NCBI RefSeq assembly: GCF_053078305.1
Contig: NZ_CP166879.1
Length of the DNA: 64,000 nt
Strand: one strand, 5' to 3'
The position numbers are program-made. Positions 38,601 to 41,600 of the stretch are shown piece by piece (the first letter of the stretch is position 1; each line of letters opens with the position of its first letter).

Positions 38601-41600
38601 GCGGATCGCCACCACAAACACCGCCAGATAGCAAATCAAAAAGGTGGCGCTGGCAACGCTGGCGAGTGAGCCTAAATTCAGCGCCGCCGTCATCAGCATA
38701 ATCAACACCACGACAATAATGTTGCCCCAGGTACTCTGCCGCCACAGGGATTTATTCATTAGCTTCGGTAGTTCGCGTTCGCTGCCCATGTTGTCCATGA
38801 TGTTAAACACGGCGAACAGGTTCGCGTTGATGGCTGAAGCCGTCGCCAGTAAAGCGCCGATGACGACGATCACATAACCCACATGCCCGAGCAGCGGAGA
38901 AGCTGCCTGCGCTACGGCGGTATCGGCATATTTTTCTAACTCTAATGCCGATACATCGCTAAGCAAAACCAGCGCCAGCGAGATATAAAGCAACGTGGTA
39001 ACGCCAATCGCCACCAGAAACGCCCGTGGCATAATGACCTGCGGATCTTTCACTTTATCCGCCGCGTTCGCCATCATGCCAAAGCCCGCATAGGCAAGGA
39101 AGGTTATCCCGATACAGGAGAAGAACGCACCGGAGCTGGGGGGCGCAGAGACGGAAATATGCGCCGGTTGCAGCGACCAGACACCGGCAATAATCAGCAA
39201 TAACAGGATCATCATTTTAATGCCGACGAGGATCACCTCCAGCCGCCCTACCGCATGGTTGCTTAAGGAGTTGAAAAGCGTCATCACCGCAATGATCCCC
39301 AACGCGTAGAGCAAAATAAGGTGCTCCTCCTGGCTGCCTTCATGCAAAAACTGCACGGCATAAGCGCCAAAAGCACGGGCGACCATGGCGATGCTCACCG
39401 CCAGCGTCAACAGGTACAGTAACGAGAGCGCCAGCGAAAAGACGCCGTTGCCTAATCCGCGACGAAAGAAGTCGATAATGCCGCCATTGCTGGGATAGCT
39501 CGCCCCCAGACGCGCATAGGCATAACCGGAAAACATCGCCACAATACCGCCAAAAGCAAAGGCGACCCAGGTCGAGGCTTCCATTAGCAACGCAGCCTGC
39601 CCCAGCAGCGCGAAGATCCCCGCCCCCACCATTGCCCCAATGCCGATGGAAACGACGTTCCATAGACCGAGGGGTTTGTTACCGTTATTACCTTCCGTGT
39701 TCATCATGATCAGCCCTTAAACACGTTATAGCCGAGTTGCTTAGCGACCGATGCCACCATTTTTTGACCGCGAACACTGTTGCCTTCTTCGTCCAGCGGT
39801 GGTGAGAACGCGGCAATTCCCATCACTCCAGGGACGACCGCCAGAATACCGCCACCTACACCGCTTTTGCCCGGTAAACCAACACGATACGCCCAGTCAC
39901 CGGAGCGACCATACAGCCCTTCCATCATCATTTCGGCCAGAATGTACGGCACGTTGTCGGCCTGAAGAACGCGTTTATGCGTCAACGGATTCACACCACC
40001 CGCCGCCAGCGTCGCGCCAAGCGTTGCCAGTTCAACAGTATTGATGAGCGTGGAGCACTGACGGGTGTACACGTCACAGGCTTCCATTGCATCACAATAG
40101 AGATATCCGGCGGAGTACAGCAGCCAGGCAATGGCCCGGTTATGGAAGTTGGTTGTTTGTTCCGACTGGTTGACTTCGTCAGAGAGCGCTACCAGCTCAC
40201 CAGCCAGTTGCTGTTGGATATGTAAAATTCGCTGCCAGCGTTGTTCGGCATTTTCAGCGTTAATCAGGCTGGTGGTGGCAATAGCGCCAGCATTTACCAG
40301 TGGCGACAGCGGTTTGCCGCCATGCAACTCTAAGGCGATAACTGAGTTAAAGGGCAATCCGGTCGGGTCAGCGCCAATTTTGTCCTGTACCGCCTGCGGG
40401 CCGACATCTTCTAACGCAAGGGCTAACGTACAGACTTTCGAGATGGATTCCAGCGCAAAGCGGTAATCACTGTCACCCGCACTATAGACGTTGCCATCGC
40501 TGGTCACGATAGCCACTGCTGCCAGTTGACCAGGCACATTCGCCAGAAAGGGAATGTAATCGGCATTTTGTCCGCCGTTAAGTGAGTGAAATTGGGTGTA
40601 AGCCTGATCCACTGCCTGCTGTAATTTGTTTGCATCTAACATCTTTTGTTAACTCCTTTTTATAGATGCGGGAGGTAATTCCTCACCCCGGTGCCGATTT
40701 TCAGGCATCCTGATTTAACTTAGCACCCGCAACTTAACTACAGGAAAACAAAGAGATAAATGTCTAATCCTGATGCAAATCGAGCCGATTTTTTAATCTT
40801 TACGGACTTTTACTCGCCTGGGTTATTAATTTCTTGACCTTCCCCTTGCTGGAAGGTTTAACCTTTATCACAGCCAGTCAAAACTGTCTTAAAGGAGTGT
40901 TTTATGTCACAAACTATCGACCTGACCCTGGACGGCCTGTCCTGCGGTCACTGCGTTAAACGCGTGAAAGAAAGTCTCGAACAGCGCCCGGATGTGGAAC
41001 AAGCGGATGTGTCTATCACTGAAGCGCACGTTACCGGGACTGCCAGTGCAGAACAGCTGATCGAAACCATCAAACAAGCGGGTTATGACGCATCTGTAAG
41101 CCACCCAAAGGCTAAACCGCTGGCGGAGTCATCAATCCCGTCGGAAGCACTGACAGCGGTTTCTGAGGCGCTTCCGGCAGCGACCGCCGATGACGATGAC
41201 AGCCAGCAGTTGCTGCTGAGCGGCATGAGCTGCGCCAGCTGTGTCACCCGCGTACAAAATGCGTTGCAAAGCGTACCGGGCGTCACTCAGGCACGGGTAA
41301 ACCTGGCGGAGCGTACTGCGCTGGTGATGGGCAGTGCCTCCCCACAAGATTTAGTGCAGGCGGTGGAAAAAGCGGGCTACGGCGCGGAAGCGATTGAAGA
41401 TGACGCGAAACGCCGCGAGCGCCAGCAAGAAACCGCCGTCGCTACGATGAAGCGCTTCCGCTGGCAGGCAATTGTTGCACTGGCTGTGGGTATCCCGGTA
41501 ATGGTCTGGGGGATGATCGGCGATAACATGATGGTCACCGCTGACAACCGCAGCCTGTGGTTGGTTATCGGCCTGATAACCCTGGCAGTGATGGTTTTCG

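Follow-up and report, generated by a model that had tools for sequence, protein, structure and literature searches.

An intact CueR operator at copA of an Escherichia coli genome in which cueR lies 28 kb away behind a type I secretion/adhesin island

The analysed window, by which we mean the whole 64-kb stretch of contig NZ_CP166879.1, carries a copper-export gene, copA, and the gene for its regulator, cueR, at some distance from each other (Table 1). The glsA and ybaT genes are divergent from copA and, between ybaT and cueR, a type I secretion/adhesin island is located, comprising a TolC-family gene, a giant BapA/SiiE-like RTX adhesin gene, an LssB-type ABC transporter gene and an HlyD-family adaptor (MFP) gene. 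This layout is already known and is annotated likewise in O157:H7. The same island, at the same ybaT/cueR site and with the same RstA box, is the O-island 28 (OI-28) of EHEC O157:H7 (tolC28-rtxA28/rtxB28-hlyB28-hlyD28), described, in a paper that mentions neither cueR nor copA, as a type I secretion/RTX adhesin system activated by RstA and Ca2+ (PMC12758282). In O157:H7 strain PV15-279 a frameshift interrupts the tolC gene and an internal stop the adhesin gene, whereas both genes are intact in the window; the RefSeq name of the adhesin in related strains is 'BapA-related adhesin SiiEA'. Of 5426 complete E. coli genomes, 959 (~18%) have the junction of the HlyD-family gene with cueR.

Table 1. 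Features of the copA-cueR region in the window.
Feature	Position	Strand	Basis and remarks
cueR, Cu(I)-responsive MerR-family regulator, 135 aa	12100..12507	-	NF007590 equivalog, 308 bits
HlyD-family type I secretion adaptor (MFP) gene	12504..13679	-	TIGR01843, aligned to profile end (422/422); stop overlaps cueR ATG
LssB-type type I secretion ABC permease/ATPase	13676..15838	-	TIGR03375, 838 bits
Giant adhesin, intact single ORF, 6925 aa	15842..36619	-	BapA_N prefix, Ig-like, FG-GAP and RTX repeats
TolC-family outer membrane protein of the island, 451 aa	36722..38077	-	TIGR01844, 416 bits
RstA box TAATTCAAATTACC, island regulatory region	38356..38369	-	read in sequence; motif from PMC12758282
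ybaT	38415..39707	-	amino-acid permease match; divergent from copA; O157:H7/K-12 annotation
Sequence directly 5' of the K-12 cueR transcription start	38582..38615	-	in ybaT; exact, 100% conserved match in the window
glsA	39710..40642	-	NCBIfam NF009020; divergent from copA; O157:H7/K-12 annotation
-35 hexamer of PcopA, TTGACC	40834..40839	+	read in sequence; same as K-12
CueR box ACCTTCC-N7-GGAAGGT (core CCTTCC-N7-GGAAGG, 40838-40856)	40837..40857	.	inside the 19-bp spacer
-10 hexamer of PcopA, TAACCT	40859..40864	+	19 bp past -35; same as K-12
Predicted copA transcription start, 32 nt 5' of ATG	40872	+	position carried over from K-12 TSS data
copA, Cu(I)-exporting P-type ATPase, 834 aa	40904..43408	+	NCBIfam equivalog NF007952, 1747 bits

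The cueR product is identical to that of K-12 at 134 of 135 positions, the sole change being D103N, and both C112 and C120 are present. The distance from cueR to the -35 hexamer of the copA promoter (PcopA) is 28,327 bp. The cueR start codon overlaps the TGA of the HlyD-family gene in an ATGA arrangement, and the genes directly 5' of cueR are those of type I secretion and the adhesin; the earlier note was therefore right in describing the regulator gene as embedded behind the adhesin operon.

A motif search of the window located an exact dyad, CCTTCCCCTTGCTGGAAGG, at the core of the CueR box. The box has perfect 7-bp arms (ACCTTCC at 40837-40843 and GGAAGGT at 40851-40857), of which the left one shares 2-3 bp with the 3' end of the -35 hexamer, while the end of the box is separated by 2 bp from the -10 hexamer. 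Positions 40834-40865 read TTGACC-TTCCCCTTGCTGGAAGGTT-TAACCT, that is, the -35 hexamer through the -10 hexamer plus one base. The two hexamers are thus 19 bp apart, as in a CueR-activated MerR-type sigma-70 promoter, with the inverted repeat lying inside the spacer and ending 2 bp short of the -10. A generic sigma-70 scan allowing spacers of 16-18 bp detected no promoter at PcopA, which is expected for a MerR-type promoter with a 19-bp spacer. The published PcopA, analysed by cryo-EM and in vitro transcription, has a 19-bp spacer, the motif CCTTCC-N7-GGAAGG and 2 bp between the box and the -10 (PMC8169799), and all three features are equal to those of the window site. Downstream lies a gene of a Cu(I)-exporting P1B-type ATPase, with its ATG 39 nt past the -10, and the genome encodes the cognate CueR with an intact DNA-binding domain and both Cys112 and Cys120.

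Alignment with K-12 MG1655 revealed a base-for-base match from the -35 to the copA ATG, so that the -35, the 19-bp spacer, the CueR box, the -10, the leader and the start codon are all identical, and the regulator is 99% identical. Only two SNPs were found in the whole 261-bp glsA-copA intergenic region, both located 5' of the -35. The two loci differ in the distance from cueR to the copA ATG, which is 2.6 kb in K-12 and 28.4 kb here owing to the presence of the island. The K-12 PcopA/CueR pair was reportedly the subject of earlier studies by Outten (2000) and Stoyanov (2001). Within copA, the first 300 nt are 99% identical to K-12, and the CopA(Z) chaperone frameshift site CCCAAAG is kept at 41104-41110. 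In the K-12 TSS map, copA has a 5' UTR of 32 nt, preceded by the same 50-nt sequence as in the window (Kim et al. 2012, PMC3415461 supplement). Of 5420 complete E. coli genomes, with the island or lacking it, 5332 carry the 60-bp PcopA core without a single change. Strain H70, the one sampled of the 88 variant genomes, has an identical core, with changes only 5' of the -35 and in the leader; homology of the promoter with this strain, as well as with other genera, starts at the -35 hexamer TTGACC. Judged by its sequence, the site is the canonical, well-studied CueR-dependent copA promoter of E. coli, and as such already known. The earlier note had claimed that the operator is intact and had named mutation relative to the consensus as the observation that would speak against this; no such mutation was found, the arms being perfect and the whole operator identical to the experimentally characterised K-12 site.

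To place this arrangement among other Enterobacteriaceae, cueR loci from 80 species were collected and their neighbours mapped, and both genes were present in 75 loci. In 46 of these, copA and cueR are divergent neighbours separated by 94-227 bp, most of them with 94-115 bp between the start codons; they include Salmonella, many Citrobacter, Enterobacter, Klebsiella oxytoca, Kluyvera, Lelliottia and Trabulsiella, among others. In about 45 species loci the start of cueR lies only 8-10 bp beyond the copA -35, so that the cueR mRNA has to start inside the operator or past it, an arrangement resembling the mer operon. A Salmonella copA-cueR divergon, as opposed to the E. coli arrangement with ybaS-ybaT between the two genes, was described previously (Permina et al. 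2006, PMC1526738). The mer-type divergent unit (merR/merT) likewise combines a MerR-family regulator with a promoter having a 19-bp spacer, as at PcopA, with the regulator starting within about 100 bp of the target promoter; in the window this distance is 28.3 kb. In most Enterobacteriaceae the divergent cueR shares the operator region with copA, whereas in the window and in every Escherichia locus examined the regulator gene is unhooked from the operator.

The separation of copA from cueR by unrelated cargo has occurred repeatedly across the species loci. Genes are inserted between the two in every Escherichia locus examined, and several Citrobacter carry a 7.7-kb insert of TonB-receptor-like and ABC-transporter-like ORFs, a candidate haem uptake cluster as judged by eye. 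In 72 of 75 loci, at copA-cueR distances from 94 bp to 28 kb, the CueR box accompanies copA; in the remaining three it has one or two mismatches in the left arm. The cueR side fared differently after separation: a second full box is found there in two loci and half a box in three, while other separated lineages kept only the ribosome-binding site 5' of cueR, behind a new TATAAT promoter. No ancestral sequence is left 5' of the cueR ATG in Escherichia.

Comparison of the two Escherichia arrangements suggests which of them is the older. In the 124-bp ybaT-cueR spacer of K-12, about 32 bp correspond to the sequence just past ybaT in the window, and about 93 bp match the 3' end of the HlyD-family gene. 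The last 93-96 bp of this gene (12508-12603) persist as the cueR upstream region of K-12-type strains, with a 1-bp deletion in K-12, and the K-12-type junction corresponds to the loss of positions 12604-38384 of the window, about 25.8 kb. This junction is common to the island-less E. coli sampled, including CFT073, and to one other Escherichia species, while E. albertii has a shorter and more diverged HlyD-family remnant with another endpoint. Since the MFP is aligned through the end of the HlyD-family profile (422/422), the K-12 DNA is a fossil of the gene, and not the reverse; the possibility that the MFP gene had captured pre-existing intergenic DNA was rejected because the protein fits the profile to its last position. 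As K-12 retains this 93-bp fossil 5' of cueR, the island-bearing state appears to be the older one in the genus and K-12 a deletion derivative, which runs counter to the view of OI-28 as an EHEC acquisition. The wording of the earlier note, according to which cueR is 'now' about 28 kb away, accordingly holds relative to other Enterobacteriaceae, where the distance is about 100 bp, but not relative to K-12, where the 28-kb state looks like the older one.

The position of cueR raises the question of how the gene is transcribed behind the island. In a generic scan of the 3 kb upstream, through the MFP and ABC genes, no consensus sigma-70 promoter was found on the cueR strand beyond chance. Weak -10 candidates, GATTAT and GAATAT, were noted by eye about 45 nt 5' of the cueR ATG; they have no -35 partner and therefore no promoter is claimed. 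The phrase 'cueR promoter' was not found in the literature and the supplements of two operon/TSS papers yielded no cueR entry; the only TSS assigned to cueR in K-12, with 31 reads and a 292-nt leader, is located inside ybaT (PMC3415461 supplement). The sequence directly upstream of this start is fully conserved in the window, where it faces the TolC-like gene, upstream of the island and about 26 kb from cueR. Given that no consensus promoter was detected and that the K-12 start is cut off by the island, the supply of CueR could differ from that in K-12.

One could hypothesise that cueR has no promoter of its own and is the fifth gene of a tolC-adhesin-ABC-MFP transcript, being expressed by read-through and possibly by translational coupling at the ATGA, in which case the level of CueR, and with it the set-point of copA control, would follow the RstA and Ca2+ regulation of the island and would be sensitive to polar mutations. 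Besides the lack of a consensus promoter and the location of the K-12 start upstream of the island, this would agree with the tight packing of the genes (the adhesin and ABC genes are 3 bp apart, and ABC and MFP as well as MFP and cueR overlap by 4 bp). It would also agree with the scan for terminator-like sites, which found none on the cueR strand over the ~970 bp that precede the start codon of cueR; the four minus-strand matches all lie farther upstream, inside the MFP and ABC coding sequences. In O157:H7, the hlyD28 mRNA responds to RstA and Ca2+ along with tolC28 (PMC12758282). However, O157:H7 with a frameshifted tolC and a stop in the adhesin gene has the same CueR (WP_001026752.1) as a strain with an adhesin annotated as intact, which argues that expression of cueR is independent of an intact upstream operon. 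Moreover, the ~50 bp 5' of the cueR ATG do not vary within E. coli, whether or not the island is present, and were retained by two independent deletions, of the K-12 type and of the E. albertii type, which is compatible with a weak local promoter and a ribosome-binding site. Co-transcription of cueR with the island genes is thus a possibility to which we attach only limited credence. Alternatively, cueR may be transcribed from a putative weak promoter within the terminal ~100 bp of the HlyD-family gene.

Two further searches addressed the same region. Folding of the RNA of the cueR translation-initiation region revealed no significant structure (z = 0.38) and, therefore, no evidence of a sequestered ribosome-binding site. 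An RfaH ops element, which could aid read-through over 26 kb, was not found in the island leader, and the sole exact ops match lies inside ushA, probably by chance. The more general proposition, that cueR lacks a promoter of its own in island-bearing E. coli (~18% of complete genomes, O157:H7 among them) and is expressed for the most part from the end of the tolC-adhesin-ABC-MFP transcript that RstA and Ca2+ activate, appears somewhat less probable still. If it were true, CueR dosage and copper homeostasis would be tied to adhesin expression, and the published phenotypes of OI-28 and hlyD28 deletions would perhaps be partly confounded by changed cueR expression.

It may also be asked whether the CueR box acts leftward as well, so that CueR would control glsA-ybaT, together with cueR in K-12, as a relic of the time when copA and cueR formed a divergent unit. 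The ~45 species loci in which cueR lies 8-10 bp from the copA -35, with the mRNA starting inside or beyond the operator, are in line with this, ybaS, ybaT and cueR were predicted to form an operon that belongs to the CueR regulon (Permina et al. 2006, PMC1526738), and ybaST was reported to be copper-induced (PMC9628877; PMC10903455). On the other hand, the mapped glsA TSS is located 70 nt 5' of the glsA ATG, at about 40712, more than 120 bp from the box (PMC3415461 supplement), and according to a 2024 review the regulation of ybaST is not directly associated with CueR (PMC10903455). Leftward control is therefore improbable. That the dyad is a chance palindrome without a regulatory role is scarcely credible: short palindromes do sometimes arise randomly and nothing further can be said in favour, but CCTTCC-N7-GGAAGG occurs once in the 64-kb window, also when one mismatch is tolerated, where 0.07 occurrences would be expected by chance, and this match fits exactly into the 19-bp spacer 5' of copA, is the same as the characterised K-12 site, and is conserved throughout Enterobacteriaceae.

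We therefore return to the reading of PcopA as a canonical CueR-dependent promoter, with CueR provided in trans from the gene 28.3 kb away, which is very probably correct. The activation mechanism is taken from the literature, and the identity of the promoter and the regulator to those of K-12 and the gene layout come from the present analysis. A CueR dimer would sit on ACCTTCC-N7-GGAAGGT within the 19-bp spacer, which is longer than usual; in the absence of Cu(I), the two hexamers would be out of register and the promoter off, while Cu(I)-CueR would bend and under-twist the spacer, enabling sigma-70 RNA polymerase to use both hexamers and to transcribe copA from about 32 nt 5' of its ATG. Copper- and CueR-dependent activation in vivo is established for the identical K-12 sequence (PMC8169799, PMC5329002). 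It follows from this identity that copA should remain under CueR control, which is strongly expected here, and the corresponding proposal of the earlier note is supported at the level of sequence. In the strain from which the window derives, copA is predicted to be copper-inducible, and cueR is presumably expressed adequately from its place at the end of the type I secretion/adhesin gene row. A literature search for expression data on copA or cueR in an island-bearing strain found none, and among copper transcriptomics in O157 nothing directly relevant was found.

CueR is a soluble, trans-acting dimer. Since it is diffusible, the distance of 28 kb between an intact cueR and PcopA should not matter, and no effect of it would be expected. 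The opposition implied by the earlier note, that the operator was retained although the regulator gene is so far away, is consequently not a real one: in K-12 the same protein serves the cueO promoter, located at 137 kb, from cueR at 514 kb, a distance of 377 kb. This second CueR-activated promoter of E. coli, whose gene is outside the window, follows the PcopA design, with TTGACC, CCTTCC-CGTAAGG-GGAAGG, a 2-bp gap and the -10; it departs from PcopA in the 7-bp centre of its box and in the sequence of its -10, TATGCT. Reporter assays with cueR on a plasmid and PcopA on the chromosome, or the reverse, also work (PMC5329002; PMC8169799).

Taken by itself, the finding at PcopA matters little: the promoter is among the best-characterised of those that respond to metals and has here been identified once more, and the distance to the regulator gene is irrelevant for a diffusible factor. 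Of use to those working on OI-28 or CueR are the secretion-gene fossil 5' of the K-12 cueR, the repeated unhooking of the regulator gene, and the displaced TSS. Deletion of O-island 28 or of its hlyD-family gene removes the whole cueR upstream region, Shine-Dalgarno sequence included, and copper phenotypes in such mutants therefore merit checking. In a wider context, the locus presents a MerR-type regulator gene that has repeatedly been unhooked from its own operator by insertions, with control of the target kept.

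Divergent copA and cueR genes, with start codons 94–115 bp apart, were found in most Enterobacteriaceae (loci L009, L013 and L063 and about 43 more; around position 9890–10000), and in these divergent loci cueR starts 8–10 bp from the copA -35 element. In many lineages this short gap was entered by unrelated insertions, including a 7.7-kb cluster which, on a by-eye reading of the ORF translations, resembles haem uptake genes, and, among others, an Hcp-like ORF. The copA leader is mostly about 68 nt long in adjacent loci, versus mostly about 39 nt in separated ones. Since some of the separated lineages carry an additional full or half CueR box directly 5' of cueR, besides the one at copA, the sequences suggest that the promoter was partly duplicated at the insertion site. 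The coordinates of these boxes and of the features of the window are listed in the table.

Features of the window and of related loci (L-numbers denote cueR/copA loci of other genomes, each with its own coordinates)
Feature	Position	Strand	Remark
600-aa ORF with YadA-like anchor	window 9586-11388		in the cueR-ybbJ insert
REP/naRNA4 element	window 8747-8824		in the cueR-ybbJ insert
HlyD-family gene 3' end / fossil	window 12508-12603; L002 8901-8993		
Giant adhesin	window 15842-36619	-	single intact 6925-aa ORF
TolC-like gene	window 36722-38077	-	intact
Sequence 5' of K-12 cueR-assigned TSS	window 38582-38615	-	100% conserved
Sigma-54 site counterpart in ybaT	window 38962-38978	-	CTGGCACTGGTTTTGCT with one mismatch
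CCCAAAG slippery site in copA	window 41104-41110	+	conserved with surroundings
naRNA4 (REP-type) elements, several	window 43520-43698, 50756-50833		Rfam matches
sroB/ChiX sRNA between ybaK and ybaP	window 44996-45079	-	Rfam match
dnaX frameshift element	window 58756-58820	-	Rfam match
Second full/half CueR box, cueR side	L059 ~6240-6273; L062 ~9968-10000; L012, L028, L040 ~9965-10000		

Within copA, the slippery site is that of the programmed frameshifting which gives rise to the CopA(Z) copper chaperone. One E. coli strain (L085, NZ_CM148325.1 4066245-4066593) has the sequence upstream of copA replaced as far as the CTTGACC of the -35 element, and two copies of the promoter core are present in the record of this strain.

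The type I secretion/adhesin island (O-island 28) lies between ybaT and cueR. In O157:H7 strain PV15-279, the adhesin gene contains an internal stop and the tolC gene is frameshifted, while both are intact in the window strain. The adhesin of a pig isolate is likewise annotated as intact, and since it comprises 6308 aa versus 6925 aa in the window, the number of adhesin repeats appears to vary between strains. A motif search did not find the RfaH ops consensus, GGCGGTAGCGTG, in the island leader; an exact match inside ushA (47139-47150, minus strand) is probably due to chance.

In K-12, Kim et al. (2012) assigned to cueR a TSS whose upstream sequence lies within ybaT; in the window this sequence is now directed towards the TolC-like gene and the island, and some 26 kb separate it from cueR. 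An intragenic sigma-54 ChIP-seq site has also been reported in K-12 ybaT; the gene downstream of the motif is cueR in K-12, whereas in the window strain it is the TolC-like gene.

A second small insert (8698-12099) separates cueR from ybbJ, which abut in K-12. Its ORF with a YadA-like anchor is longer than the versions in the annotations of O157:H7 and of a pig strain (338–349 aa); the ORFs at 11474-11896 and 8875-9237 had no Pfam match.

What precedes cueR in K-12-type strains is a fossil, 93 bp long, of the 3' end of the HlyD-family gene belonging to the island, with a 1-bp deletion inside, and a deletion of window positions 12604-38384 reproduces the K-12-type junction. The remnant in E. 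albertii is shorter and differs from the K-12-type one. This fossil and junction, together with the differing E. albertii remnant, imply that O-island 28 would be ancestral in Escherichia and later lost, rather than being an EHEC acquisition.
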